The notes: generated by a model not told the origin, from the sequence alone. Counted from the first letter of the stretch, positions 4,609 through 40,144 are shown. The stretch is 64,000 bases of DNA from Acidobacteriota bacterium (GCA_963663035.1 OY760074.1:736001-800000), one strand, 5' to 3'. Program-made: numbers and translations.

Positions 4609-4683
4609 TCGGGGGTCGTCTAATAGGCAAGACAGCGGCCTTTGGAGCCGCCAATCCAGGTTCGAGCCCTGGCCCCCGAGCCA
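4609..4683 (+). tRNA. tRNA-Gln(TTG)
   Basis: Acceptor stem TCGGGGG/CCCCCGA, anticodon arm GCGGC-CTTTGGA-GCCGC, T-arm GGTTCGAGCCC, encoded CCA. Confidence 0.96.
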
Positions 4684-24046: not shown

Positions 24047-24134
24047 TGGTGCGAAAGGGGGGACTCGAACCCCCACGACCTTACGGCCACCAGATCCTAA
24101 ATCTGGCGCGTCTGCCAAATTCCGCCACTTTCGC
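24047..24134 (-). tRNA. tRNA-Leu(TAG)
   Basis: GCGAAAG/CTTTCGC acceptor, anticodon arm CCAGA-TTTAGGA-TCTGG, long variable arm, encoded CCA. Confidence 0.96.
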
Positions 24135-27304: not shown

Positions 27305-27381
27305 CGGGGCATAGCGCAGCCTGGTAGCGCGCCTGCTTTGGGAGCAGGAAGTCGGGGGTTCAAATCCCTCTGCCCCGACCA
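27305..27381 (+). tRNA. tRNA-Pro(TGG), island attachment site
   Basis: CGGGGCA/TGCCCCG acceptor, anticodon arm CCTGC-TTTGGGA-GCAGG, encoded CCA. Confidence 0.97.
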
Positions 27382-27390
27382 ATTTAACCC

Positions 27391-28688
27391 GGTGCATTCC
27401 GGACACATAGGTTACAGTTTATTCCGAAGACATAGGTAACACCTTTGCACCAAAAGGGTTATTTATAGGTTCAAACCTTCTACTGTCTTCGTCAAAGTAA
27501 CCGAGGTCGTATTCCATAAACGACACCAGCCAAATTTTCTCTTTGACCTCTTTGATTCCAACATCTTGACCAGCAAACACCGTGCTGAAGTTGATCTTTT
27601 GACTTTTCATACAGATTCTGCCGCAGCTGGTGACGGTCACGGTGCGATCGTGCATGGGGTACTCGACGCGCCCGATTCCTCGGTAGGGACAAGATGCGGG
27701 AGTATAGACCTCGGACGGAAACTTCATGCCCAGGGCCTCATGAGGTCTCTCAGTATTGTATTCCGCCTGAAAGGCATTAAACCTCTCTTGCTGCTGAAGA
27801 AGGTTGTGGGCAGCGGGAACGACTGTGGCCTTCTTGAGGGTGAGATGAAGGCGCTCATGCCTTCCGTTCTGCTCGGGATGGCCGGGCTTGATCCTCTCGA
27901 TTCGGATTCCTAGCCTAAGCCACCAGACGGCCAGTCGACTGAGTCCAAACAATCCGTTGGGTGATGCAAAAGGGACTCCGTTGTCCGTGCGGATCGCTTC
28001 CGGCAAACCTAACTCTTGAAAGGTTCTCTCGAATACGGGGAAAGCACCTCTTTCCTTAACACTGTCGAGAGCCTCGATGGCGAGCAGATAACGGCTGGCG
28101 TGATCGCTCACGGTGAGAGGATAACAGTACCGTTTGTCTCCCAGCATGAACTCTCCTTTGAAGTCGGCAGACCAAAGGTCATTGGGATTCTGGCTGCTGG
28201 ACAATCGAGTCCCCTCTGCCTTGAACCGTCGCCGTTTTCTACAGTTCACCAGGCCGTTGCGATCCAGAACCGCGTGAACTGTGCTCACCGCAGGCGGCCG
28301 TACATTCGGAAACCTACGAATCAGGAGCGCCCGAATCTTGGGAGCTCCCCAATACGGCTTCTCTCGCTTTAGCCTGACCAGGGTCCGTTCCACCTGTTCG
28401 GGCAGTTGGTTTCCGTAACGATGCGGCTTGCGGCTCCGATCCACCAGGGCGTAAGCGCCGGTGTTTTGATAGCGGTTCCAAATCTTGTAGCCCGTCTTTC
28501 TGGATATCCCAAACTCCTCACACAGACGGCTCATGGACTCCCCATCCAACAGCTTCGCTATAAATCTCATTCTCTCGTCCATCACACAGATCTCCTTCCA
28601 TGGCATCTCTGGGCACCTCCCAGAAGAAGCCTATAAGTGTTACCCATGTGTCCGGTATAATTTGTTACCCATCTTTCGGAATGGGCAC
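27391..28688 (-). mobile_element. IS481-like insertion sequence, copy 1 (1298 bp)
   Basis: Sequence shared with 38802-40099; ends GGTGCATTCCG / CGGAATGGGCAC; two tandem subterminal repeats at each end; CC on both flanks. Confidence 0.93.
27419..28606 (-). CDS. IS481-family transposase
   Basis: N-terminal HTH (ISRKTGYKIWNRY), WSADFKG, IRTDNG, PEQNGRHER, YNTERPHEAL. Confidence 0.93.
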   Translation of the reverse strand: MPWKEICVMDERMRFIAKLLDGESMSRLCEEFGISRKTGYKIWNRYQNTGAYALVDRSRKPHRYGNQLPEQVERTLVRLKREKPYWGAPKIRALLIRRFPNVRPPAVSTVHAVLDRNGLVNCRKRRRFKAEGTRLSSSQNPNDLWSADFKGEFMLGDKRYCYPLTVSDHASRYLLAIEALDSVKERGAFPVFERTFQELGLPEAIRTDNGVPFASPNGLFGLSRLAVWWLRLGIRIERIKPGHPEQNGRHERLHLTLKKATVVPAAHNLLQQQERFNAFQAEYNTERPHEALGMKFPSEVYTPASCPYRGIGRVEYPMHDRTVTVTSCGRICMKSQKINFSTVFAGQDVGIKEVKEKIWLVSFMEYDLGYFDEDSRRFEPINNPFGAKVLPMSSE

Positions 28689-28696
28689 CCCTTTTT

Positions 28697-28709
28697 AATC
28701 AATTAGTTA
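28697..28709 (+). promoter_or_regulatory. IHF-binding consensus at the island left end
   Basis: AATCAATTAGTTA matches WATCAANNNNTTR exactly. Confidence 0.55.
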
Positions 28710-28841
28710 AGACAAATCTGTCAAAGCCCTCAAAAGGGTCACTTTGGGGCCAGGGTGCGGATTTTGGTGGTGAAAATGAGGTGAATTTGGGTGGGGCAGG
28801 GAAGTGGCCTGCTGAGTTATTTCGTAGATGCCCGCACTAAC

Positions 28842-29315
28842 CTACTGCTTATCAAAAACCTCTACTCTGCTAAACGGCTGACCCTGCGCATTGGTCCCCA
28901 TCGTCTTGAAGGTAAAGGTCTGTCCATCCGGAGAGACACTGCGCATGAAAACCGTGATCAACTTCCCGCCCTTCATGGACATCCCCTCCAGATTATAGGC
29001 ATCAATGCGCCTATCCATCGTGGCATCACTTGTGGGACGAGGATTTGCCCTGGGGTGCACTTTGCCGTCGAAAGCGAGCGTGAGTTCGGTGTGGGACGAG
29101 TTCCCATTTGCATCAACCGTATCGCGGGAATTCTTATATGTATCTTTGCCCACTAACTCATAATGGTGTACCAGACTCTGCGGCGGCTGACCAGGATCGT
29201 ATATCGATTTGGACAGGTTTAGCTTCCAACTACCGACAAATGGGTCGCTCTGCGCCCAGACACTACTAGCCAGGGCCAAGATAGCCACGGCCGCGATAAC
29301 GCTGCATTTTTTCAC
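28842..29315 (-). CDS. Small secreted hypothetical protein (lipocalin-like start motif)
   Basis: GTG start with GGAGG RBS, signal peptide, DPFVGSWKLNLSKS...VFDKQ. Confidence 0.7.
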   Translation of the reverse strand: MKKCSVIAAVAILALASSVWAQSDPFVGSWKLNLSKSIYDPGQPPQSLVHHYELVGKDTYKNSRDTVDANGNSSHTELTLAFDGKVHPRANPRPTSDATMDRRIDAYNLEGMSMKGGKLITVFMRSVSPDGQTFTFKTMGTNAQGQPFSRVEVFDKQ

Positions 29316-29519
29316 GGGCTGCTCCTTTCCTCCATAAAGCGTGGCGATTCGCATACCAAGTCTCCACGCATATACTTCACCTACCCTATAGTATAGGCTC
29401 CTAAATAAAATAAAGATACACGTCCAAACCAGTCCAGCAGAAGCGAGAGCGCTGTGCACGACTCACCACGGAGAAGTCCGATTGGATGCAGTGGATGTTC
29501 CAAATTGGCGGTCGGAGTT

Positions 29520-31040
29520 CTACTGCTTGGGTGGGGTTGTGGGATCCGGGTAGGCCGGCGCTGTAGCGGGTTGAGTGGCCCTGTCGGCAGGTCCCATGTC
29601 CTCTCGTCCCCGAGGTGTAGCACCCAGTTCGAGCAGCAGATTCGCGGTGCTCTCGTGGTTGCCGTAGAGCCCCCGAAACCTCAAGACGGGGCTAATTCCC
29701 GCCGCCATACTCCAGGGCGTCTCTCCGTTCTTGTCCGCGGTGTCCACGTTAGCACCGTGGTCCGCCAAGTATTGAACGATTGCGTCCGCTCCCGTAAAGG
29801 CTGCCGAGTGCATGGCAGTTCGGCCATCGTCGTTGACCACATCGATGTCGGCGCCCAGCTCTACAATTGCTTTGACGGCTTCTACGGCCTTCCTCTGCTC
29901 CTCCTCGTCCCTGCGGTTAAAGTCGCACCCCGCCCCCGCACAGATCACTCCCGCAGCCACCATAAGCGGTGTCGTATTCTCCCTGTTCGCAATGCGCGTA
30001 TCCGCGCCGCCAGCCGCCAGAATCCGAATGACCTCCACATCCACAGCTACCGCTGCGAGAAAAAGCGGTGTCGCACCTACCATGCTGAGCGCCCCCCCAT
30101 CAGGTCCATAGGTAATGCCCTTCTTGATTCGAGCGTCTGGGTTAGCTCCATGTGCCAACAGGGCCTTTGCCAGGTCTGACTGACTGGGGGGAGCAACACG
30201 GTAGTTTGGGTCGAATAGAATGCCGCTGAGGGCTAAGAGTCCTTTGCGCACAGCATAGTGCAGGGGTGTAGCGCTATTGGCGTCCCCTACGTTCGGGTTG
30301 GCACCCTTCTCCAGAAGAAAAAGAGCCAGTGCCTCGTGGCCACTGGCACTGGCCACGACCAGTGCACTGCCGTGTTCAGGCGTGGTATCGTTCACGTTGG
30401 CTCCCGCTCCCAACAGAATCCGGGCAGATTCTACATCACCCGAGCGGGCGGCAAACAGCAGCGGTGGGAACCCACTTGTGGATCGCGTATTCACCTCCGC
30501 ACCCTGCTCGATCAGCATCCGCCCAACTTGCGGGTACCCTCCTGCCATTGCCCACATCAGCGCCGTCTGTCCCTGCTCGTTCTCTCGCACGTTCACATCC
30601 GCGCCATGAGCCAGCAGGGCTCTTATGCCCTCAGCTGTTCCCGTGCCGGCGCAGGTCATCAGCGGCGTCTCGCCTGTCCACTTGGCTGCGTTCGGATCGG
30701 CTCCGGCCCGAAGCAGTCTGTCGACTAAGACGCCGTCTCGATTGGTGCAGGCCAGTGAGAGGGGAGTAACGCCGTAATCGCTGGCTGCGCTCGGGTCGGC
30801 ACCAGCGCTCAGGAGAAGCTCCACCGTTTTTGAATCGGCCCGATGGGTCGCCCAGGCCAGCGCCGTAGCTCCATCCGCCTCGCTCGCATTCACATCGGCC
30901 CCTTGCTGAAGCAAGGACCGCACGGCTTCCTGATCGCCCTGTTTGACCGCCTCCACCAGCCGCAGATCCCCAGCAGCCCTCAGCGGGCCAAGCGACAAGA
31001 GAAAGACTGTCCACCAACTGATCGTACGTCTTACATCCAT
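29520..31040 (-). CDS. Secreted ankyrin-repeat protein
   Basis: Signal peptide and many G.TPL/TAL...LL..GAD.N repeats. Confidence 0.92.
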   Translation of the reverse strand: MDVRRTISWWTVFLLSLGPLRAAGDLRLVEAVKQGDQEAVRSLLQQGADVNASEADGATALAWATHRADSKTVELLLSAGADPSAASDYGVTPLSLACTNRDGVLVDRLLRAGADPNAAKWTGETPLMTCAGTGTAEGIRALLAHGADVNVRENEQGQTALMWAMAGGYPQVGRMLIEQGAEVNTRSTSGFPPLLFAARSGDVESARILLGAGANVNDTTPEHGSALVVASASGHEALALFLLEKGANPNVGDANSATPLHYAVRKGLLALSGILFDPNYRVAPPSQSDLAKALLAHGANPDARIKKGITYGPDGGALSMVGATPLFLAAVAVDVEVIRILAAGGADTRIANRENTTPLMVAAGVICAGAGCDFNRRDEEEQRKAVEAVKAIVELGADIDVVNDDGRTAMHSAAFTGADAIVQYLADHGANVDTADKNGETPWSMAAGISPVLRFRGLYGNHESTANLLLELGATPRGREDMGPADRATQPATAPAYPDPTTPPKQ

Positions 31041-31069
31041 ACTTTTCCTTCTACTCAGCTCTGGCCCGG

Positions 31070-32413
31070 CTAGGCTAGAGAAAGAAGGTTGAGCTTCCTC
31101 GTGCTGTCCCCAAAATTCTCCATCCGAATTCCCAACTTGTCGAGCATGGTCAGGTACAAATTCGTCATCGGGGTACCCTCAGGAAAGCGAATATGACGGT
31201 CTTGTCCGATCTGGCCGACTCCCCCACCCAGCAAGAGGACAGGCAGGTTTTGGTTCAGATGTATGTTGCCGTCGCCGAAGGCACTGCCGTAAAGGATTAT
31301 AGTGTTGTCGAATAGGGAGCCGTCGCCGTCGGGAACAGAGCGCATTTTCTCCAGAAAGTAAGCAAACAATTGGGAGTGATATACGTTGATGCGGAACACC
31401 TTTTCGATCTTCTCCGGATTCAACCGGTGGTGCGACAACGGGTGGTGTGGGTCAGAGATACCGATTTCGCTGAAAGTCCGGGTACTCTGCTCTGCTCCCA
31501 TCATGAAGCTGATGACGCGAGTCATGTCGGTCTGGTAGGCCAGCACCTGCAAGTCAAACATTAGCTTGGCGTATTCTGCGAAGGTAGGCGGAATGCCAAC
31601 CGGACGAGCGACGTTTGGCAGATCCCTGGAGCTCTGCTGCTCGGCCATCTGGATGCGCCGCTCAACATCGCGAATGGCCTCCAGATACTGGGAGAGCCTG
31701 GCGCGGTCGCTGGGGCCAAGTCTCGACATAAGGCGCGAGGCGGCCTCGGTCACCGAGTCGAGAAGACTGAGCTCCTCACGGATCACGGCAAGCCGCTCTG
31801 CCGGGTCCGTGCTATTGCTATCACCGAATAAACGCTCGAACACCTGTCGCGGCTTGTTTTCAGTGGGTAGCGGTGTTGTGCCATTGCGCCAGGAGAGAGT
31901 GTTGAGGTAGGCACAGTTCCAGCCATTTTCGCACTGGCCTACCACGTCGGTGTCGTGCAGGCCCAGCTCAAGCGATGCTAGCTGGGTCTCCTTGCCAAGT
32001 TCCCTGGCAGCGATCTGATCGACGGAAACTCCCACGTGACCTTCTTTCTTCGGGTGAACCCCGGTCAGGAAGGTGGCGCCGGCCCGCTCATGCGGTGCGT
32101 TCTCGCCGTCGCCCGGCAGCGGATCAGCGGAATCCTGGTTGAGTCCGGTCAGCACCAGCATGCGATCTCGAAAGGAAGCCAGTGGCTCCAGAATAGGGGG
32201 CAACTCGAAAGCGGCACCTTCCGTCGCAGGCGTCCACCTGTCCATGATCATTCCATTGGGGGCATAGACAATAGAAAGGCGGGTCACCGGTTTGGCTACA
32301 GCGCTCGCGGCAGATAGAGCCGGGACCATGGAGTCCAACAGCGGCAAGGCCAGCGTGGCACCCACTCCATGCAAAAAAGTGCGGCGAGGGATATGCTTCT
32401 TGGTAATGATCAT
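31070..32413 (-). CDS. DUF1552 family protein, Tat-exported
   Basis: PRRTFLHGVGATLALPLLDSM, YAPNG, SVDQIAA, HHPLSHH, LYGSAFGDGNIH. Confidence 0.88.
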   Translation of the reverse strand: MIITKKHIPRRTFLHGVGATLALPLLDSMVPALSAASAVAKPVTRLSIVYAPNGMIMDRWTPATEGAAFELPPILEPLASFRDRMLVLTGLNQDSADPLPGDGENAPHERAGATFLTGVHPKKEGHVGVSVDQIAARELGKETQLASLELGLHDTDVVGQCENGWNCAYLNTLSWRNGTTPLPTENKPRQVFERLFGDSNSTDPAERLAVIREELSLLDSVTEAASRLMSRLGPSDRARLSQYLEAIRDVERRIQMAEQQSSRDLPNVARPVGIPPTFAEYAKLMFDLQVLAYQTDMTRVISFMMGAEQSTRTFSEIGISDPHHPLSHHRLNPEKIEKVFRINVYHSQLFAYFLEKMRSVPDGDGSLFDNTIILYGSAFGDGNIHLNQNLPVLLLGGGVGQIGQDRHIRFPEGTPMTNLYLTMLDKLGIRMENFGDSTRKLNLLSLA

Positions 32414-35196
32414 AACTCTTGTGCCCTCCTCATTTGAAATGGTGTGCTCTTAACGATACCCAGAATCAGCGATGACCAGCGGTAGTCACTAGCAGCGGCC
32501 TCTTGCAAGATCTTGCGAACAGCCGGAGCATCGTAATACTCAATTCCTCGAGCGAGGGCATAGGTGAGGAGTTTTTCAGTGACCGTATATATAAACTCCT
32601 CTTTTTTCCTCACCAATATCTTGCTCAGCTCAACCGGGCCCTCAAATTGCGTGCCGTCGGGGAGTACCCCGGACGAATCGATGGGAGTACTTCCCTCGGT
32701 CATTCGCCATCGACCGATGGCGTCAAAATTCTCCAGCGCGAAGCCCAGCGGATCCATTAGCCTGTGGCAACTGGCGCACACGGGATTGGAACGGTGCTGC
32801 TCCATCTGCTGGCGCATGGAAAGGATCTTGCCACCCTCGTCACGATCCCTCAGCTCCGGAATGTTCGGGGGGGGCGGAGGGGGCGGCGTGCCCAAGACGT
32901 TATCCAGCACCCACTTACCTCGAAGTACCGGGGAGGTCCGGTTGGGATACGAGGTCACCGTCAAAATGCTCCCTTGGCCTAGCAGGCCCCTTCGCCGCTC
33001 GTCGCTTAATGTGACGCGCCGAAAGTGACTGCCATAGATTTCCGGAATCCCATAGTGCCGGGCCAGGCGTTCGTTGACGAACGTGTAATCGGCTCTTAAC
33101 AAGTCCAGGACACTGCGATCCTCACGTAGGATGCTTCCGAAGAAAAGCTCCGTCTCCTGCTGGAACGCCCGCCGCAGATTTTCGTCCCAATAGGGAAAGG
33201 CCTCCAAATCCGGGATCATCGAGCGCAGATTGCGCAAGTGCAGCCACTGGGCGCCGAAGTTGTCCACCAGCGCCTGGGAGCGAGAATCGGAGAGCATGCG
33301 CCGTACCTGCTCCTCCAGGACCACGGAATCGCTAAGCTTGCCACCTTCGGCCAAATCCAAAAGCTCATCGTCGGGGATGCTGCTCCAGAGAAAGAACGAT
33401 AAGCGGGAGGCTAACTCCAGGTCGGTGATCTCATAGGCGGTATTTGGGGCCACGTTTTCCGGATCCTGCTCAATTCGAAACAAGAATTCGGGGCCGACCA
33501 GTATCCTCTGCAATGCCTTTCCGATTCCTACTTCAAACCCTCCTTCACTGCTGCCGGCCCGGTAGAAGCGCAGCAAAGTCCGGAGATCCTCGTCTGTAAG
33601 AGGTCGACGATAAGCGCGACGTGCGAGCGTGGAAAGAATCTTCTCAGCACACGGCCCTTCCTCCTGGCTGACCGCTGGGCGGCAAAGAAAAATCTTGCGG
33701 CGACTGGCTGTTTCTCCCAATCCCTTGGCATCGTAGGGTCCGCCAATAGAGACCTTGGCCACAGCGGGCTCACCCCCCTTGTACTGCAAGTAGTCATCCT
33801 GGGTCATCCGGGGCTGGAGCGGTTTTTCAGGCACCGAGTTTTCCTTCAGAAAAGCGACCTGGACCAGGTGCACACCCGCCGCCGCTGGGAAGCGAACTTC
33901 CAGGGCCTCGTCCGCCGTGCGTTCGTAGTTTTCCTGCGCCGGGTCCCCCGTGCCGCCGCTGGAGAAAATACTTGCAGACCTGCCATAGCGTTCGCCCCCG
34001 ATGGTAAGCAGCCGGAGTCTTCCCCCATCCAGACGAATGTCGAGTTGATGCGGCTCTTCTAGCAGACCGCGGATAAGTTCTCTGGAGTTCCTTTGCAGGC
34101 GGACCTGGATAATGTATTCAGCGTCAAGGGGGAAGTAATGGCGGACAGCGATGCCGCCTCGCGAATCGAAGGGAAGGTCCTCGCTAGCGCGGTCATCCTG
34201 CATGAGATACTTGGAAATGTTGTAAGTCTCAAAGGCCGGACCAGCGTCGGGATCTCCGATGGCTATACGTCGAATTTTCCGTGCGGCCGATAGATATCGT
34301 TCCAACAACACTGGTGATACAGTCAGGACGTCTCCAATATTGTCAAAGCCATGTCTGGAATCGTCGGCGGGAAGAAGCGATGCGCTGTCTATCTCCACCG
34401 CCAGCAAGTCGCGAATCGCATTGGCGTATTGGGTTCGGTTGAGACGCTGGACGGGCGACCGGCCGGAATTGGGATTGTCTGCTGCTACCCGATCCAGCTC
34501 TGTCTTCAGGTAGGTGGTGAAGGCATCGAGGCTAACCTGAGTCGGTCGCGGCATCTGGGGAGGAGGCATCTGCCCCGCTCGAAGCTTCCGTATCACCTTC
34601 TCCCAAACGGGAGCGTCTTCGCTGACATTCACGACGTTCGCCTGGTCCAGCATCAATCCTGCCGTACGTGCCGTTTCATTGTGGCAAGTGATGCAGTAGC
34701 GATTCAGAAACTCGCGGTGGGGGGAAGCGTGCGACGGAACCAGAGTCAGGGAATTGAGCCCAGCCTGCTGATTTTCCTCCGGTGGGACCATCCCACCGCC
34801 GGCACTCGCCACACTCTGGAGCTCCCTCTGCAGGTAGGCTAAAAAGGAGTCAACGCTGGCCTGATCAGGTCGTGGCATGTCGGCCGGGGGCATGGCACCA
34901 GCCTGTAGCTTCCCCACCACCTTCTGCCACATCTGAGGATTCTTGCTGACATCCTCGACTTCAGCCTGATCAAGGAGCAGCTCGGCCGTGCGCAAGGTTT
35001 CGTTGTGGCAGGTGACGCAATAGCGATTCAAAAGCTCGCGGTGGGGGGAGACCTGTGAGGAAAGTTGAGTCGAGGCCTGCAGAGCCACTGCCGGAAAGCA
35101 GGCGACACCCAACGCGATCAAGCCCAAGATCGTTCTGAACATCGTAGTTAACGAAGTCAAACTTTGCCATGGGTTAGGTTTGATCCACAACATCAC
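32410..35196 (-). CDS. DUF1592/1588/1587/1585/1595 protein with a duplicated N-terminal cytochrome-c-like domain (start probably 35142)
   Basis: CVTCH, CITCH, CASCH; RLNRTQYANAIRDLL, ELASRLSFFLWSSIPD, TSPVLRGKWV, GFALENFDAIGRWR. Confidence 0.9.
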   Translation of the reverse strand: MMLWIKPNPWQSLTSLTTMFRTILGLIALGVACFPAVALQASTQLSSQVSPHRELLNRYCVTCHNETLRTAELLLDQAEVEDVSKNPQMWQKVVGKLQAGAMPPADMPRPDQASVDSFLAYLQRELQSVASAGGGMVPPEENQQAGLNSLTLVPSHASPHREFLNRYCITCHNETARTAGLMLDQANVVNVSEDAPVWEKVIRKLRAGQMPPPQMPRPTQVSLDAFTTYLKTELDRVAADNPNSGRSPVQRLNRTQYANAIRDLLAVEIDSASLLPADDSRHGFDNIGDVLTVSPVLLERYLSAARKIRRIAIGDPDAGPAFETYNISKYLMQDDRASEDLPFDSRGGIAVRHYFPLDAEYIIQVRLQRNSRELIRGLLEEPHQLDIRLDGGRLRLLTIGGERYGRSASIFSSGGTGDPAQENYERTADEALEVRFPAAAGVHLVQVAFLKENSVPEKPLQPRMTQDDYLQYKGGEPAVAKVSIGGPYDAKGLGETASRRKIFLCRPAVSQEEGPCAEKILSTLARRAYRRPLTDEDLRTLLRFYRAGSSEGGFEVGIGKALQRILVGPEFLFRIEQDPENVAPNTAYEITDLELASRLSFFLWSSIPDDELLDLAEGGKLSDSVVLEEQVRRMLSDSRSQALVDNFGAQWLHLRNLRSMIPDLEAFPYWDENLRRAFQQETELFFGSILREDRSVLDLLRADYTFVNERLARHYGIPEIYGSHFRRVTLSDERRRGLLGQGSILTVTSYPNRTSPVLRGKWVLDNVLGTPPPPPPPNIPELRDRDEGGKILSMRQQMEQHRSNPVCASCHRLMDPLGFALENFDAIGRWRMTEGSTPIDSSGVLPDGTQFEGPVELSKILVRKKEEFIYTVTEKLLTYALARGIEYYDAPAVRKILQEAAASDYRWSSLILGIVKSTPFQMRRAQEL

Positions 35197-35339
35197 AGCT
35201 TCTCGAAAGTTGAGGTTCGACGCAATGTAGATAGTATTGACTGAGAGTAAGAGTGTAGTCTTACAAACACTTTGATCCTAGCACCTATTCGAAGACTAGG
35301 CAAGGTTTTCAGAGTGTTTTCTGATTCGTTTGAGTGCCA

Positions 35340-35355
35340 CGCAATTTGAGTGCCA
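35340..35355 (-). promoter_or_regulatory. Putative sigma-54 promoter of the DUF1592-DUF1552-ankyrin operon
   Basis: Minus strand TGGCAC-TCAAA-TTGCG. Confidence 0.55.
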
Positions 35356-35438
35356 TGCAAATAGTTCTCGTACAAGTTTTAAGGTAAGCAATGGTAAGAT
35401 GGCGTAAATTAAGATGAGGATTAAGGAGGATTAATCAC

Positions 35439-37196
35439 ATGCGAAGCAGTTCCATGCAGGTTCTTGTCACTATTGCAGTGCTTTCAATGCTGCATTTACC
35501 AGTTATGGCTCAGATGGACGGATTCCGACCCGTGACTGATGAGAGGCTTATTAATGCGAACAACGAGCCGGAAAACTGGCTTACTTTCCGGCGCACATTA
35601 AACCAATGGGGGTACAGCCCCCTTGACCAGATCAACCGCGATAATATCAACGACTTGCAGTTAGCTTGGTCTCGGGGAATGAATCCAGGACGAAACCAAC
35701 AGGAACCCCTTGTAGTCGACGGGATCATGTTTCTGCTCCATCCACAGAGCGAGGTAGAAGCGCTAGATGCGCGTTCGGGTGAGCCGATATGGAGTTTTGA
35801 CGATGAACCTGCTGCCGATGTGCGCAATCGGGGGCGATCGAGGAGTCTCGCAGTATATAGGAACACGGTCATCTTTGGGACGGGCGACACGCGAGTTATC
35901 GCTCTAGATGCGCGAACTGGTCGAAAGGTATGGGAGGTTGACACGTTGCCTTCGAATGCTTCGCCGGGGGGCAAAGACTTCTCAGCCGGACCGATTGCGG
36001 CGAACGGCAAAGTTTATATGGGAACCGCCTGTGGTTCTGGGCCTCGCCTCCCATGCTATGTTGTAGGTATCGACGTGGAAACAGGTAAAGTTCTGTGGCG
36101 GAGGGAGGCCGTCGCCGGCCCTAAGGATCCGCCTGAGCATCAAGCGAGTTGGGGTAATGTCGCTTACGAGGATCGTCATAAGGCATCATTTTGGGTCACG
36201 GGTAGCTACGATCCAAAGTTGAATTTAACGTACTGGGGATCCGCGAGTGCTTCGCCCTATCCTGAGATACTGAAAGGCACTGGCGATGGTGATCTTTCGT
36301 GGACAAACTCGACCCTGGCAATCAGGGCGGACACAGGTGAGTTGGCCTGGGCGTTTCAACATCTCCCGAGGGACAATTGGGATGCGGATCACATGGGTGA
36401 GAGGATCTATGTTGATGGATTACGGGTCCAACCCGATTCAAATGACCTGAAGTGGTACAATCCGGACCTGTTGGACGGACAACTCCGCAATGTGCTCTGG
36501 GCGATTGGAAAGCCGGGAGTTTTGTGGGCCCTTGATCGAGAGACGGGTGAGTTCTTGTGGGCCAAAGAAACTGTATACCAAGAGTACTACCAAGATATTG
36601 ATAGGCGAGGGCGCGTAACAATAAACGAAGCGAAGATCCCCAAAGAAGTTGGTGAGGAGATTCGCATCTGTCCTGGAATGCGTGGTGGCTCGCTCTGGCA
36701 AAATGCCTCCTATAGTCCACTCACCAATGCACTGTACCTCAGTGTGCATCAAACTTGTAACGTCCTTCGCATTGTTCCTACCGACAGTGGTCTCGACTGG
36801 ACGAAGCTGTTCCACATGCCTGAAAGCCAAGGTCAAGTTGGACGTCTGATTGCAGTTGACGCTTCTACCGGAAAGCTCCTGTGGTCCTATCTGCAGAGGG
36901 CACCTATGTGGTCTACGCTGACCACAGGTGGTGGGTTGGTTTTTGTAGGGGACAATTACCGGAACCTGATGGTGTTCGATCAACGAACAGGGGAGAAGGT
37001 TTGGGAGGTACCTCTGAGCGGTCCGGTTATGGGCAACCCAGTGAGCTTTGCCGTGGACGGTCGCCAATACATCGCTGTGGGAGTTGGAGGTGGAGGCATG
37101 GGCGGTCCTCATATGAATAGAGAGCTCACACCTGAACTGCATCCTCGCGTAGGAAGCAACGTCCTTATGGTATTCGTATTGCCCAAACGTCATTAA
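35439..37196 (+). CDS. PQQ-binding beta-propeller quinoprotein dehydrogenase family protein
   Basis: Signal peptide, YSPLDQINRDN, repeated A.DA.TG...W blades, RDNWDAD, GRQYIAVGVG. Confidence 0.88.
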   Translation: MRSSSMQVLVTIAVLSMLHLPVMAQMDGFRPVTDERLINANNEPENWLTFRRTLNQWGYSPLDQINRDNINDLQLAWSRGMNPGRNQQEPLVVDGIMFLLHPQSEVEALDARSGEPIWSFDDEPAADVRNRGRSRSLAVYRNTVIFGTGDTRVIALDARTGRKVWEVDTLPSNASPGGKDFSAGPIAANGKVYMGTACGSGPRLPCYVVGIDVETGKVLWRREAVAGPKDPPEHQASWGNVAYEDRHKASFWVTGSYDPKLNLTYWGSASASPYPEILKGTGDGDLSWTNSTLAIRADTGELAWAFQHLPRDNWDADHMGERIYVDGLRVQPDSNDLKWYNPDLLDGQLRNVLWAIGKPGVLWALDRETGEFLWAKETVYQEYYQDIDRRGRVTINEAKIPKEVGEEIRICPGMRGGSLWQNASYSPLTNALYLSVHQTCNVLRIVPTDSGLDWTKLFHMPESQGQVGRLIAVDASTGKLLWSYLQRAPMWSTLTTGGGLVFVGDNYRNLMVFDQRTGEKVWEVPLSGPVMGNPVSFAVDGRQYIAVGVGGGGMGGPHMNRELTPELHPRVGSNVLMVFVLPKRH

Positions 37197-37262
37197 GGAG
37201 ATTAACTCTAGTGTCTCGTCCCATGAATACCCCAGTTCCCCAAAGATTTCTCGCGTTACAAG

Positions 37263-38276
37263 TTGACTGACCCAATCATGATGCCCTTTATCCAGATCTC
37301 AGCAGATTCCAGAAAAGGAAAAGCGGTGGGGACTCCGACGTCAGGAACATGCCCCTTGCGGTTCAGCGGGCTGGTTACTGTTCTATGCATTTTTTTACTC
37401 TGGACAGGCTTTGCAGTTTCCTGGCCCGGCCAAGAGACAGGTGGAAGGAGTGCAGAACTGCTTCCGAACGGCGAAGCTGAAGAACTCACCCGGAGACTAT
37501 GCGGCAGTTGCCATTCTCTTGGAAATTTGACCGGTTTGAGACAGAGTTATCGCAGCTGGGAGAGTGTCGTAGGGAGGATGATCAATCTTGGAGCGCCAGT
37601 TCGAGGGGAGGAGTTTAGCCCCATCGTTCGATATCTAGCGGAGGTATTCGGGCCCGACTCTCCGCCACGGATTGACCTCAATCAGGCTGGAGCCGAGGAA
37701 CTTAAGAAGCTCGCGGGACTGGACGACTTGACCATCAGGAAGCTTCTTGATTTTCGGGACCAGAAGGGGGGCTTTGATAGAAGTGAGCAAGTCCGAGGCA
37801 TTATCGACTCGGACATGTTCGACCGATTGAAAGGCTACCTCTGGGCCGGAAAAGAGACAGCTGTAAGGAGTGTGGAACTGCTCCCCGATGGCGAGGGTGC
37901 AGAGCTCACAAGGGGAGCATGCAGCAGTTGCCATTCCCTTTTAACCTTTACCGGTTTGAGGCAGGATCCTCGTGGTTGGGAGGATATTGTCCGTATGATG
38001 ATGATCGATCATGGCGCGCCGATCCAAAGCCAGCAGTCTCGCGTCATCATTCGATATCTCACTGATGTTTTCGGGCCGGACTCTCCTCCGCTGACCGACA
38101 TCAAATGGGCTCGAGCCGAGGATCTGAAAAAGCTCCCGGGGCTGGATGACTTGACCGCCAGAAGGCTGCTTGATTTTCGGGACCAGAAAGGCGGCTTTAA
38201 CAGCGTCGACCAAATTCGAGAGGTCATCGGCTCGGACAGGTTCGACAAACTGAAGGGGTACCTCATAGTCAGATGA
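37263..38276 (+). CDS. Tandem (cytochrome c + helix-hairpin-helix) x2 protein
   Basis: Two units of about 140 aa, each with CxxCH followed by a ComEA/HhH-like segment (DLNQAGAEELKKLAGL...RDQKGGF). Confidence 0.75.
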   Translation: MTDPIMMPFIQISADSRKGKAVGTPTSGTCPLRFSGLVTVLCIFLLWTGFAVSWPGQETGGRSAELLPNGEAEELTRRLCGSCHSLGNLTGLRQSYRSWESVVGRMINLGAPVRGEEFSPIVRYLAEVFGPDSPPRIDLNQAGAEELKKLAGLDDLTIRKLLDFRDQKGGFDRSEQVRGIIDSDMFDRLKGYLWAGKETAVRSVELLPDGEGAELTRGACSSCHSLLTFTGLRQDPRGWEDIVRMMMIDHGAPIQSQQSRVIIRYLTDVFGPDSPPLTDIKWARAEDLKKLPGLDDLTARRLLDFRDQKGGFNSVDQIREVIGSDRFDKLKGYLIVR

Positions 38277-38287
38277 TTTGCGTTTAC

Positions 38288-38370
38288 GGTACCGTCAAGT
38301 TAAGTCGCTGTCAGCGACCATGGGAGGATGGAATCACAATATCGAGGCCACCGTTTCCCTCCAAAAATCT
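38288..38370 (+). pseudogene. IS6-family left-end remnant
   Basis: GGTACCGTCAAGTTAAG terminus-like sequence followed by RBS and MESQYRGHRFPPKI. Confidence 0.65.
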
Positions 38371-38396
38371 GGGTATGATGCTTACTGTGAAGGCAG

Positions 38397-38498
38397 TTAG
38401 GCCCTTTGTGGAACCCTAGTCTTACGATAAACTTCGCCCATGCCCCCCTGGCCGATTTTCTCAAGAACCTTGTAATGGGAAATGGTTTTGCCGATCAC
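38397..38498 (-). pseudogene. N-terminal remnant of a Hanks-type Ser/Thr kinase
   Basis: VIGKTISHYKVLEKIGQGGMGEVYR then loss of similarity; G-rich RBS upstream. Confidence 0.8.
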
Positions 38499-38748
38499 GA
38501 AACTCCCCCCACTGCAGTGCAGTTGTGCCTAAAGTTACGACGTGGAATGGGTTAAAGACAATGGGAAACAGGTCAGTGGTTTTCGGCTGGAAGCATATGG
38601 AGTAACTGTTTAGAGCTAGGGCGAAGAAAAGTCGGGCAAAATCTGGGTGCGGATAGGGTGCGGGGAGTGCATTTTTTTGCGCTATTTTGCGCCTCCTTGC
38701 GCAGTGTAAGTCCTATAAAATAAATGATTTCAACACTTAACAAATAAG

Positions 38749-38795
38749 TTTGGAGCAGGAAGTCGGGGGTTCAAATCCCTCTGCCCCGACCAATT
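38749..38795 (+). repeat. attR: duplicated 3' half of tRNA-Pro
   Basis: TTTGGAGCAGGAAGTCGGGGGTTCAAATCCCTCTGCCCCGACCAATT, one G shorter in the anticodon loop than the tRNA. Confidence 0.93.
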
Positions 38796-38801
38796 CAAAT
38801 C

Positions 38802-40099
38802 GGTGCATTCCGGACACATAGGTTACAGTTTATTCCGAAGACATAGGTAACACCTTTGCACCAAAAGGGTTATTTATAGGTTCAAACCTTCTACTGTCTT
38901 CGTCAAAGTAACCGAGGTCGTATTCCATAAACGACACCAGCCAAATTTTCTCTTTGACCTCTTTGATTCCAACATCTTGACCAGCAAACACCGTGCTGAA
39001 GTTGATCTTTTGACTTTTCATACAGATTCTGCCGCAGCTGGTGACGGTCACGGTGCGATCGTGCATGGGGTACTCGACGCGCCCGATTCCTCGGTAGGGA
39101 CAAGATGCGGGAGTATAGACCTCGGACGGAAACTTCATGCCCAGGGCCTCATGAGGTCTCTCAGTATTGTATTCCGCCTGAAAGGCATTAAACCTCTCTT
39201 GCTGCTGAAGAAGGTTGTGGGCAGCGGGAACGACTGTGGCCTTCTTGAGGGTGAGATGAAGGCGCTCATGCCTTCCGTTCTGCTCGGGATGGCCGGGCTT
39301 GATCCTCTCGATTCGGATTCCTAGCCTAAGCCACCAGACGGCCAGTCGACTGAGTCCAAACAATCCGTTGGGTGATGCAAAAGGGACTCCGTTGTCCGTG
39401 CGGATCGCTTCCGGCAAACCTAACTCTTGAAAGGTTCTCTCGAATACGGGGAAAGCACCTCTTTCCTTAACACTGTCGAGAGCCTCGATGGCGAGCAGAT
39501 AACGGCTGGCGTGATCGCTCACGGTGAGAGGATAACAGTACCGTTTGTCTCCCAGCATGAACTCTCCTTTGAAGTCGGCAGACCAAAGGTCATTGGGATT
39601 CTGGCTGCTGGACAATCGAGTCCCCTCTGCCTTGAACCGTCGCCGTTTTCTACAGTTCACCAGGCCGTTGCGATCCAGAACCGCGTGAACTGTGCTCACC
39701 GCAGGCGGCCGTACATTCGGAAACCTACGAATCAGGAGCGCCCGAATCTTGGGAGCTCCCCAATACGGCTTCTCTCGCTTTAGCCTGACCAGGGTCCGTT
39801 CCACCTGTTCGGGCAGTTGGTTTCCGTAACGATGCGGCTTGCGGCTCCGATCCACCAGGGCGTAAGCGCCGGTGTTTTGATAGCGGTTCCAAATCTTGTA
39901 GCCCGTCTTTCTGGATATCCCAAACTCCTCACACAGACGGCTCATGGACTCCCCATCCAACAGCTTCGCTATAAATCTCATTCTCTCGTCCATCACACAG
40001 ATCTCCTTCCATGGCATCTCTGGGCACCTCCCAGAAGAAGCCTATAAGTGTTACCCATGTGTCCGGTATAATTTGTTACCCATCTTTCGGAATGGGCAC
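38802..40099 (-). mobile_element. IS481-like insertion sequence, copy 2
   Basis: Matches copy 1 at an offset of 11411 bp; TC on both flanks. Confidence 0.93.
38830..40017 (-). CDS. IS481-family transposase, copy 2
   Basis: Translation identical to 27419-28606. Confidence 0.93.
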   Translation of the reverse strand: MPWKEICVMDERMRFIAKLLDGESMSRLCEEFGISRKTGYKIWNRYQNTGAYALVDRSRKPHRYGNQLPEQVERTLVRLKREKPYWGAPKIRALLIRRFPNVRPPAVSTVHAVLDRNGLVNCRKRRRFKAEGTRLSSSQNPNDLWSADFKGEFMLGDKRYCYPLTVSDHASRYLLAIEALDSVKERGAFPVFERTFQELGLPEAIRTDNGVPFASPNGLFGLSRLAVWWLRLGIRIERIKPGHPEQNGRHERLHLTLKKATVVPAAHNLLQQQERFNAFQAEYNTERPHEALGMKFPSEVYTPASCPYRGIGRVEYPMHDRTVTVTSCGRICMKSQKINFSTVFAGQDVGIKEVKEKIWLVSFMEYDLGYFDEDSRRFEPINNPFGAKVLPMSSE

Positions 40100-40144
40100 T
40101 CCTTGAAAATAGATGTCTTCATATTTAAGGAATTCGCCTCAGCT

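Follow-up and report, generated by a model that had tools for sequence, protein, structure and literature searches.

Why should two copies of one insertion sequence (IS) lie at exactly the same short distance, and in the same orientation, from the 3' end of a tRNA-Pro gene and of a partial copy of that gene? The question is raised by a 64,000-nucleotide stretch of an Acidobacteriota genome (GCA_963663035.1, OY760074.1:736001-800000), here called the window, whose positions are counted from its first nucleotide and which sits inside one 3.59-Mb contig (G000:C1, the element's own genome below). We found that the element is an autonomous IS481-family insertion sequence with one DDE transposase, and that it belongs to a widespread clade of this family whose members home to the DNA just 3' of tRNA genes; this target class is new and universal, and the machinery that serves it is the smallest known. 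How the site is found is less certain; we give a probability of about 0.65 to the reading that the transposase picks its target by recognising the T-arm DNA of tRNA genes.

The two elements in the window, copy A and copy B (Table 1), are 100% identical when the two regions are aligned, and the identity also spans the last 41 to 44 nt of the tRNA (27338/27341-27381 versus 38749/38752-38792); the tRNA-Pro fragment beside copy B matches the gene over 41 nt, or 44 nt if 2 of 3 further matches are counted. The identity is broken by the spacers between CCA and element, which are 9 nt each and differ at 3 of 9 positions, and the flanks to the right of the two copies differ as well. An open reading frame (ORF) of 395 codons on the minus strand of both copies converges on the tRNA. 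The original prediction, which was made from this sequence alone, had placed copies of the same orientation 9 nt behind an intact tRNA-Pro and behind its 3' half-copy, and had taken them for independent insertions and not one duplicated block; ARAGORN and alignment confirm the arrangement, and the differing spacers and right flanks bear out the independence. Its dimensions needed correction. The matching elements of supposedly 1,298 bp are identical copies of 1,297 bp, because the base after ...GGGCA varies among the genome copies and contigs from three public runs end at 40098, and the proposed 2-bp target duplications are 3 bp, CCC/CCC at copy A and an imperfect ATC (left)/CTC (right) pair at copy B.

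An empty site was found in a genome of the same genus (G005), where tRNA-Pro(tgg) is followed by CTGTAACTC-CTTATTAATCAATCATTTAAGG with no IS. This site aligns without gaps to ATTTAACCC-CTTTTTAATCAATTAGTTAAG of the window after removal of the IS and one CCC, and of its BLAST segments one ends at 27388 and the next begins at 28687. The alignment therefore fixes both the element boundaries and the 3-bp duplication, and the same comparison identifies the DNA to the right of copy A as the normal sequence after tRNA-Pro in the genus. Synteny was compared with the genomes of 20 relatives, of which 19 matched only at the tRNA itself and G005 alone gave an empty site.

The two window copies could be a duplicated block of tRNA and IS, a repeat assembly artefact, or the attachment (att) part of an integrase-driven island. 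Both junctions do lie in repeats, the 41-nt tRNA piece and the 1.3-kb IS, for which reason no contig from four public runs bridges either junction of copy B, and the 10-kb segment between the copies resembles an island bounded by a tRNA and its 3' copy. We nevertheless consider this account very improbable. Besides the differences in spacers and right flanks, the unique flanks of copy B show 0 differences in three public runs, in which the IS reaches roughly tenfold depth. The element has inverted ends and a DDE transposase, and it is flanked by a 3-bp duplication rather than by a duplicated att site. In addition, nine further loci of this single-contig genome, and dozens of other genomes, have the same geometry. 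The public runs also hold variant IS copies with 6 to 30 differences. Two of them (X15 and X16) contain a contig that links the IS end (window 38802) to a foreign tRNA 3' end (...GAGTCC...CCA plus 10 nt), a junction absent from this genome that represents either an insertion polymorphism or a related strain in the samples.

A census of the element's own genome, with BLAST for copies and ARAGORN for tRNAs, returned nine full copies (99.9 to 100% identity), an older one at 94%, and fragments. A tRNA gene or tRNA 3' fragment precedes 11 of the 12 copies that retain the tRNA-side end. Eight of these targets are intact genes (Pro-ggg, Pro-cgg, Pro-tgg, Ala-cgc, Ile-gat, Phe-gaa, Met-cat and Gly-gcc) and the other three are the window's Pro half-copy, a half-copy of Arg-acg that lies 3 kb away from the gene itself, and a Gly-ccc copy that is damaged, so that seven isotypes are represented. 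The gap between CCA and element is 9 nt in ten cases and 10 nt at tRNA-Ile; the tRNA-Phe gene encodes CCC instead of CCA, yet the insertion has the same register. Orientation is identical in all 11 tRNA-associated copies, with the transposase gene converging on the tRNA, and a perfect 3-bp duplication flanks 8 of the 11 two-ended copies (AGG, TAT, CCC, CTT, CGG, CTT, ACT and TTT). Since only 51 tRNA genes and one transfer-messenger RNA (52 ARAGORN calls) are present in 3.59 Mb, the finding of 8 of 12 copies 9 to 10 nt past intact tRNAs excludes chance placement. For a control, we used an unrelated rve-type IS in the same genome; its 49 hits come no closer than 607 nt to a tRNA and lie at a median distance of 23.6 kb. 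No tRNA adjoins a 51%-identical paralogue at 829,159 in this genome.

If insertion were random or weakly biased, the pattern could still arise by survival of the copies that landed in a harmless spot behind tRNAs. Intergenic sites of this kind are probably harmless, and suitable tRNA fragments are occupied more often than suitable intact genes (3 of 4 versus 8 of 31, nominal p = 0.08); selection may add to targeting. It cannot, however, yield a spacing of 9 to 10 bp at 75 of 79 sites (those of this genome and of the relatives described below) together with one orientation. Nor does the unrelated IS with 49 hits show such a pattern, and the full copies in this genome are 99.9 to 100% identical and hence recent. 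We find survival by itself hardly credible as an explanation.

Several further features of the own genome, which is very IS-rich, were seen around these copies. At G000:C1:1677922-1678835, tRNA-Gly(ccc) is present twice: a pseudo-copy that has lost 4 nt precedes a 9-nt spacer and IS positions 1-797, which abut the intact tRNA-Gly(ccc), and the intact gene has this same spacer with no insertion behind it. In the IS copy after tRNA-Pro(cgg), 519 bp stand in place of positions 526-594 (G000:C1:397669-398187), and the last 325 bp of this stretch belong to a repeat that is found at least 30 times, in identical form, across the genome. All eight copies beside intact tRNAs lie on the + strand of the contig, though in both replichores (GC skew places the origin near 3.21 Mb and the terminus near 1.23 Mb); a link to replication direction was rejected, as 3 of the 8 hit tRNAs are co-directional with replication and 5 are head-on. 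Behind many tRNA genes of this genome, at about +8 to +25, lie a T-rich stretch and a TCAATnAnTTA-like motif (for example 27382-27390 plus 28691-28715), a feature that also occurs past tRNAs in same-genus genomes and may act as a common signal for processing or termination, or as an att arm.

Related elements in other genomes show the same geometry. We scanned one genome per species and analysed the best 80 of 364 stretches that encode a relative of the transposase (63 to 94% identity); seven of these loci end too early, leaving 73 assessable. Locus L106 of the unpublished genome G015 was left out of all analyses. The hosts carry labels from 11 phyla, including Acidobacteriota, Alpha-, Beta-, Gamma- and 'Delta'-proteobacteria, Planctomycetales, Elusimicrobia, Bdellovibrionota, Gemmatimonadales, Nitrospira, Cyclobacteriaceae, Candidatus Udaeobacter and Candidatus Aquicultor (Actinomycetota), where single labels may be wrong since several relatives lie on short metagenome-bin contigs. 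ARAGORN called a convergent tRNA 41 to 61 nt past the end of the transposase match at 50 of the 80 loci. When T-loop, acceptor strand and CCA were compared with the IS end in a register test anchored on the T-loop, they were in register at 68 of 73 loci, 18 of which are tRNA 3' fragments, and 14 isotypes, class II tRNA-Ser included, were represented. Across these 68 sites and the 11 of the own genome the spacer measures 9 nt (49 sites), 10 nt (26), 11 nt (3) or 12 nt (1). A flanking duplication is present in 27 of the 59 relatives with both ends parsed, of 3 bp in 23 and 4 bp in 4, where a 3-bp match is expected by chance in 1/64. The five misses are L020 and L062, taken up below, and L059, L063 and L076, which have an ORF that extends beyond the usual stop; L059 and L063 lack the usual IS end, and L076 has a normal one (GGTCCATTCC...) but no tRNA beside it. 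A protein search returned at least 8,000 clusters at E <= 1e-10, and the 120 matches listed are 65 to 94% identical and mostly 395 amino acids long; the clade is very abundant in metagenomes.

Full-copy censuses in five further genomes (G417 to G421), which were reached via these loci and overlap with the set of relatives, found 16 of 19 copies in the canonical arrangement. All copies follow tRNAs or fragments in G417 (4/4), and all are canonical in G419 (1/1), G420 (1/1) and G421 (6/6). G418, which has a more divergent element, contains 4 canonical copies out of 7, two without a tRNA and one inverted. The inverted copy (L162, G418:C1:3261362-3265534) lies exactly 9 bp past the CCA of a tRNA-Met with a TGG duplication, and position is therefore set more strictly than orientation.

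Plasmids carry the element as well. A tblastn search of PLSDB gave 56 records at 60 to 80% identity, mostly rhizobial megaplasmids, and 9 of the top 30 were examined. Intact tRNAs precede four of these copies: tRNA-Arg(ccg) in Sinorhizobium meliloti 1021 pSymB, where only residues 25-395 remain, and in Rhizobium leguminosarum pSK03, where the copy is intact, and tRNA-Ser(cga) in plasmids of Rhizobium sp. Q54 and Peteryoungia. Two follow tRNA 3' fragments (Methylocystis rosea and Rhizobium sp. Pop5), and one, in R. sullae, is disrupted by IS110 elements. The remaining two, in Ensifer adhaerens pCTYH.Ch1_2 and R. tumorigenes pTi932, are T-box-only sites: the flank retains only GTC-N4-GGTTCGA(A/G)TCC, with the T-loop start 33 nt (pCTYH.Ch1_2) or 32 nt (pTi932) from the IS end and no acceptor strand or CCA beyond it.

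Every census thus agrees with the proposal that a DDE transposase, encoded by the element's only gene, inserts the element at a constant distance and in a constant orientation without damaging the tRNA, and the distances in the own genome (11/12) and in the relatives (68/73) are not random, the outcome on which the original prediction had staked its case. The predicted target holds as regards the tRNA 3' end, though not as tRNA-Pro in particular, given seven isotypes here and 14 among the relatives. The other two tRNAs of the window (Gln and Leu), described as not hit, indeed have no insertion.

The domain content of the transposase places it in the IS481 family. Pfam matches above cut-off are rve, rve_3, HTH_28/32 and LZ_Tnp_IS481, and the NCBIfam model for IS481 (NF033577) matches residues 12-301 at 226.5 bits against a cut-off of 224, a narrow margin; the other rows (IS3, ISNCY_2 at 39.6 bits versus 250, and IS630) are all below cut-off, and no IS1202 model was among the matches. 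As is typical of the family, there is a single transposase ORF without a programmed frameshift. D148, D208 and E251, invariant in 36 of 36 aligned sequences, are by analogy the putative DDE triad. An AlphaFold2 model of the whole protein, built from these 36 sequences (mean predicted local distance difference test score [pLDDT] of 79.7), has helical N-terminal helix-turn-helix domains (3-116), an RNase H-like core (144-300) and an all-beta C-terminal domain (321-380, pLDDT of about 90). Foldseek ranks IS21 IstA, ShCAST TnsB, prototype foamy virus (PFV) integrase, MuA and Tn7 TnsB highest for this model, and VIA-align gives Z of 16.9 against IstA and Z of 15.5 with a root mean square deviation of 2.7 Å over 149 residues against the PFV core. 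The C-terminal 98 to 112 residues matched nothing in Pfam at E up to 10 or in a PDB profile search.

The rest of the element is small. Its single ORF takes up 1,188 of 1,297 bp and leaves 28 + 81 bp (109 bp) of non-coding DNA, an Rfam scan of the element region found only the tRNA, and a promoter and terminator scan of the element found none; the view that there is no room for a targeting gene stands, and the same applies to a long non-coding RNA. Each IS end has two copies of a 17-bp repeat, CCGRANANATRGGTWAC, or its 16-nt variant, which are presumed to be transposase-binding sites. The last transposase codons overlap with the inner end repeat, and this explains the conserved C terminus ...NPFGAKVLPMS. 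The distal end starts with TGC, TGA or TGT and the tRNA-side end with GGT in most lineages and TGT in some. IS481-family terminal inverted repeats start with 5'-TGT as far as the source material at hand describes them, and the family's target duplications measure 2 to 15 bp, mostly 6 bp, in the available part of PMC10045372. The duplications seen here (3 bp in the own genome, 3 to 4 bp in relatives) fall within that range.

We found that tRNA targeting is restricted to one transposase clade. When 401 genomes of the same phylum were searched with the 51%-identical paralogue, 29 loci were returned, and none of the 26 that belong to sister clades (32 to 47% identity; three with little flank) has a convergent tRNA past the 3' end of the gene. 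Of the three main-clade loci in this set, the one at 68% identity follows an Arg fragment at 9 nt, the one at 64% has CCA+9 without a clear T-arm and the third has no flank. In one sister-clade element of 39% identity (L130, G210:C53:1-3509), a tRNA-Leu(taa) that shares the orientation of the transposase gene lies about 160 nt upstream of its start, an arrangement that may be accidental or may reflect a different targeting geometry. Of the positions that never vary in the targeting clade and differ in the sisters, about half lie in the C-terminal beta domain (H319, D320, C328, R330, C332, N339, S341, the FM.YDLG stretch and the terminal NPF..VLPM). This domain is the best candidate for target reading on the basis of such comparisons. 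The C-terminal extension to which targeting had originally been tentatively assigned is not peculiar to the clade, as the sisters have it, although half of the clade-specific invariant residues are there.

What, then, does the transposase recognise? The T-arm and the tRNA 3' end are the only DNA common to all targets. In the own genome, the eight hit genes and three hit fragments all have a T-loop of the form TTCRAWT; 11 of 35 sites of this class are occupied, as opposed to 0 of 36 others (21 genes and 15 fragments, with G or C at the W position), for which a one-sided Fisher test gives a nominal p of 1.6e-4 that is only a guide, the classes having been picked after the hits were seen. A GTC located four bases ahead of the T-stem G is also common to all 11 hits, and the resulting motif, GTC-N4-GTTCRAWTCY, which is likewise post hoc, has 19 matches genome-wide with 11 occupied; the free ones include two sites without CCA and one that is not a tRNA. 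This T-loop bias, together with the two T-box-only plasmid sites, favours direct reading of a T-arm box. Most likely, the transposase reads T-arm DNA about 32 bp, or three helical turns, from the insertion point. We also considered whether the IS ends mimic the T-loop (TTCGGAAT versus TTCGAAT) and rejected the idea, since that part of the end is not conserved among relatives.

In the mechanism that we propose, the transposase itself would recognise double-stranded T-arm DNA, probably via its C-terminal beta domain, by the T-loop box GGTTCRAnnCC and, in this lineage, the preceding GTC-N4. A 3-bp staggered cut would join the element 9 to 10 bp 3' of CCA, at a point about 32 bp away from the T with which the T-loop begins. 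The transposase gene nearly always points its 3' end toward the tRNA, and the tRNA gene is left intact. The chemistry would probably be copy-out-paste-in, as in IS3/IS481 relatives. The site may serve as a safe haven that is available in every bacterium, and tRNA read-through, which would be antisense to the transposase gene, may damp its expression.

Several observations weigh against this proposal. The copy at genome position 2,823,572 (94% identical, duplication CTT) has no tRNA upstream, and an Rfam search there gave no match better than E = 1.7. Relatives accept T-loops of the TTCRAGT type (17/67 by our own reading of the loci), so the bias seen here is lineage-specific or partly chance, and its classes and GTC motif were defined post hoc. 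Because the distance from T-loop to CCA is fixed in every tRNA, most sites cannot tell which of the two is read. Among individual loci, L062 keeps CCA+9 with a T-loop-like motif 5 nt out of register, L154 has CCA+9 without a T-box, L020 has no tRNA, and L159 (in G418) is also an exception. Finally, the sister proteins align to about residue 380, so that non-targeting clades own the C-terminal beta domain too, and part of its conservation (NPF..KVLPMS) is forced by the overlap with the end repeat.

The transposase could instead be led by a universal occupant of tRNA genes, be it the tRNA gene in the course of transcription (through an R-loop or the nascent RNA), a mature tRNA base-paired to the gene that encodes it, or a conserved protein of processing or transcription, and the original prediction's mention of a protein bound to the tRNA DNA is compatible with all of the results. 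Acceptance of all isotypes, class II tRNA-Ser included, and a distance counted from the 3' end of the RNA-coding part would fit such guidance, and eukaryotic tRNA-targeting elements use the RNA polymerase III (Pol III) machinery according to the available parts of PMC6101501 and PMC5911963. Occupied fragments without promoter and 5' half (3 here, 18 in relatives) count against it, although the insertions may predate the fragments, as do the two plasmid sites that are not tRNA 3' ends and still have the T-box at the right register; the T-loop base bias is more easily explained by sequence reading. The 11 labelled phyla would demand a universally conserved partner, a host range that argues against a lineage-specific host factor, and we know of no tRNA-gene-specific transcription factor in bacteria. 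We regard guidance by an occupant as unlikely, while giving it real weight. A particular form, in which the transposase uses cellular or nascent tRNA or an R-loop whose pairing with the gene marks the 3' end, is much less probable; if true, any bacterial tRNA gene would be targetable without reading each sequence, and the element would be a natural 1.3-kb DDE IS guided by host RNA that it does not encode.

Recognition of DNA structure is the remaining alternative, with the T-arm/acceptor inverted repeats forming a hairpin or cruciform, for example in single-stranded DNA at the replication fork. Every tRNA gene contains such an inverted repeat in its T-arm, and some IS families target hairpins (repetitive extragenic palindromic [REP] sequences, attC). 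Hits co-directional and head-on with replication nevertheless occur alike (3 and 5), no 3' strand of the T-stem is present at the two T-box-only plasmid sites, the T-loop bias concerns loop bases, and the modelled fold would be that of a classical double-strand DDE transposase. This makes recognition of structure improbable.

The half-copy in the window had been taken as sufficient for targeting, which would limit the determinant to 44 bp. This does not follow from the window, as an island could displace a junction of tRNA and IS. The own genome has at least 19 tRNA 3' fragments that run from the anticodon loop to the 3' end (for example 3307196-3319643 and 2354464-2358102), among them Leu-caa (four), Ala-tgc (three), Leu-taa (three or four), Asp (two), Asn (two) and others. 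They are scars of many integrase-driven islands, and the window fragment is of the same kind. An island entering an IS-bearing tRNA could push the old 3' half, spacer and IS to its far end, and copy B could therefore predate the separation of the fragment from its gene. A 44-bp limit is still plausible, or even generous, as suggested by the occupancy of 3 of 4 suitable fragments and by the T-box-only plasmid sites.

Table 1. Features of the window that bear on the element and its targets (positions in the 64,000-nt stretch)
Feature	Position	Strand	Evidence
tRNA-Pro(tgg), intact, CCA encoded, T-loop TTCAAAT	27305..27381	+	ARAGORN; Rfam tRNA, 68.5 bits
Spacer, 9 nt, ATTTAACCC; last 3 nt (27388-27390, CCC) are the left target duplication	27382..27390	+	Sequence; G005 empty site
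IS copy A, 1,297 bp, + strand ends 5'-GGTGC...GGGCA-3'	27391..28687	-	Alignment, genome BLAST, empty site
Transposase gene of copy A, 395 amino acids	27419..28606	-	ORF call, domain search, model
Two 17-bp subterminal repeats CCGRANANATRGGTWAC at tRNA-side end (27399-27415 and 27424-27440), 25 bp apart	27399..27440	+	Repeat search, 0 expected by chance
Distal-end repeat CCGRANANATRGGTWAC (28639-28655) and 16-nt variant (28664-28679)	28639..28679	-	Repeat search and sequence
Right 3-bp target duplication CCC of copy A	28688..28690	+	Sequence; empty site
Segment of about 10 kb between tRNA-Pro and its 3' copy	28691..38751	.	ORFs, domain search
tRNA-Pro 3' fragment, anticodon loop to CCA	38752..38792	+	Alignment
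Spacer, 9 nt, ATTCAAATC	38793..38801	+	Sequence
IS copy B, identical to copy A; transposase gene 38830-40017	38802..40098	-	Alignment; contigs from three runs stop at 40098
CTC, imperfect partner (2/3) of ATC at 38799-38801	40099..40101	+	Sequence
tRNA-Gln(ttg), no insertion, T-loop TTCGAGC	4609..4683	+	ARAGORN
tRNA-Leu(tag), no insertion, T-loop TTCGAGT	24047..24134	-	ARAGORN

ARAGORN called three tRNA genes in the window: Gln, Leu and Pro(tgg). The segment between the two tRNA-Pro copies encodes an ankyrin-repeat protein, a DUF1552/DUF1592-type cytochrome pair, a pyrroloquinoline quinone (PQQ) dehydrogenase and others; no integrase was found among its genes, and it shows no GC contrast. Its first 125 bp or so are conserved after both tRNA-Pro copies in G005. 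We considered GGGTGCGGA as arm-type repeats at both ends of the segment, but its 3 matches were equalled in 2 of 100 shuffles, and the signal was judged too weak. An ORF at 37263-38276 with helix-hairpin-helix and haem-binding matches has an internal tandem duplication of about 420 nt (37421-38264, 73 to 74% identity).

The closest precedent among known systems is the ISAba32 subgroup of the IS1202 family, which resembles the present clade in its single transposase, distantly related to IS481/IS3, in the fixed short distance and in the constant end toward the site. In the available part of bioRxiv 10.1101/2022.12.17.520857, these elements insert 5 bp from conserved XerC/D sites of chromosomes or plasmids, accept many copies of the site by a mechanism given as unknown, make 5- to 6-bp duplications, and are discussed with a safe-haven rationale. 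The present clade differs in target (a tRNA 3' end, not an xrs or dif site), distance (9 to 10 bp) and duplication (3 bp). Its transposase scores as IS481 proper, and the 3' (C-terminal) end of the gene faces the site, whereas ISAba32 elements, as far as their description was available, face xrs with the transposase-proximal left inverted repeat (IRL).

Tn7, Tn7-like elements and CRISPR-associated transposons (CASTs) share oriented insertion at a fixed distance downstream of a conserved gene that is left unharmed, and the transposase here is TnsB-like in its predicted fold; according to the accessible text of PMC11406308, tRNA genes serve as att sites for many Tn7-like elements and for type V-K CASTs. 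Those systems have a separate targeting protein (TnsD/TniQ) or a guide RNA plus TnsC, and one att site each. In contrast, the present element has one 395-residue protein in 1.3 kb, uses any of many tRNA genes and has no TnsA, TnsC, TniQ or CRISPR module.

Among eukaryotic elements, the Ty3, Ty1 and Dictyostelium elements insert upstream of tRNA genes, guided by Pol III transcription factors, and the T-loop box has the same sequence as the eukaryotic B box bound by TFIIIC. Ty3 and Ty1 of yeast and TRE5-A and DGLT-A of Dictyostelium share with the present clade the generic use of tRNA genes as a safe haven, in their case within gene-dense genomes, and the integrase superfamily, as described in the parts of PMC6101501 and PMC5911963 at hand. 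Here, unlike in those cases, a bacterial DNA transposon inserts downstream, probably by reading DNA. TnGBS1 and TnGBS2 have a DDE transposase that inserts at a fixed distance from a functional class of site, 15 to 16 bp upstream of the -35 box of sigma-A promoters in the available text of PMC4701971; they are large conjugative elements with a transposase of another family (PF06782) and another target, whereas ours is an IS.

Tyrosine-integrase islands and prophages occupy the same neighbourhood at tRNA 3' ends, and the label 'Integrase core domain' invites confusion. Their enzymes recombine within the tRNA and duplicate its 3' part; here insertion is 9 bp outside the tRNA, by an rve/DDE enzyme, with inverted ends and a 3-bp flank in place of tRNA repeats. 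IS481 itself, from Bordetella, prefers a short palindromic target, and neither it nor most other family members are reported to home to tRNA genes. Canonical IS481 and most members of its family agree with the present element in domain architecture, NCBIfam model and single ORF. They differ in that most have 6-bp duplications (PMC10045372, available part) and not 3 bp.

A search of full-text literature, outside of which lay ISfinder notes, subscription journals and supplements, turned up no account of an IS481-like element, or of any single-gene bacterial IS, that targets tRNA genes. The word tRNA does not occur in a large survey of IS neighbours (PMC9208149). Targeting of tRNA genes by this clade has probably not been described so far. 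To our knowledge, bacterial ISs are thought to be loose in their choice of target, and the few precise ones need helpers or guide RNAs (Tn7, CASTs, IS110) or one special site (Xer). In the present case, a protein of 395 residues appears to suffice for placing 1.3 kb of DNA at one defined base pair and in one orientation, with the gene unharmed, beside a type of sequence that is present 40 to 90 times in every bacterial genome.

If confirmed, the clade would be a bacterial counterpart, reached by another route, to the tRNA-homing retrotransposons of yeast and Dictyostelium, and it would make the safe-haven idea testable in bacteria. It would also provide a minimal system for a DDE transposase that reads a distant target determinant, and it suggests a compact, host-independent tool for DNA insertion at predictable neutral sites across phyla. 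Many of the 'integrase core domain' genes beside tRNAs, which can be mistaken for island integrases, would be accounted for. A mobile repeat would then stand beside many tRNA genes, which are also attachment sites of islands, with consequences for genome rearrangement.

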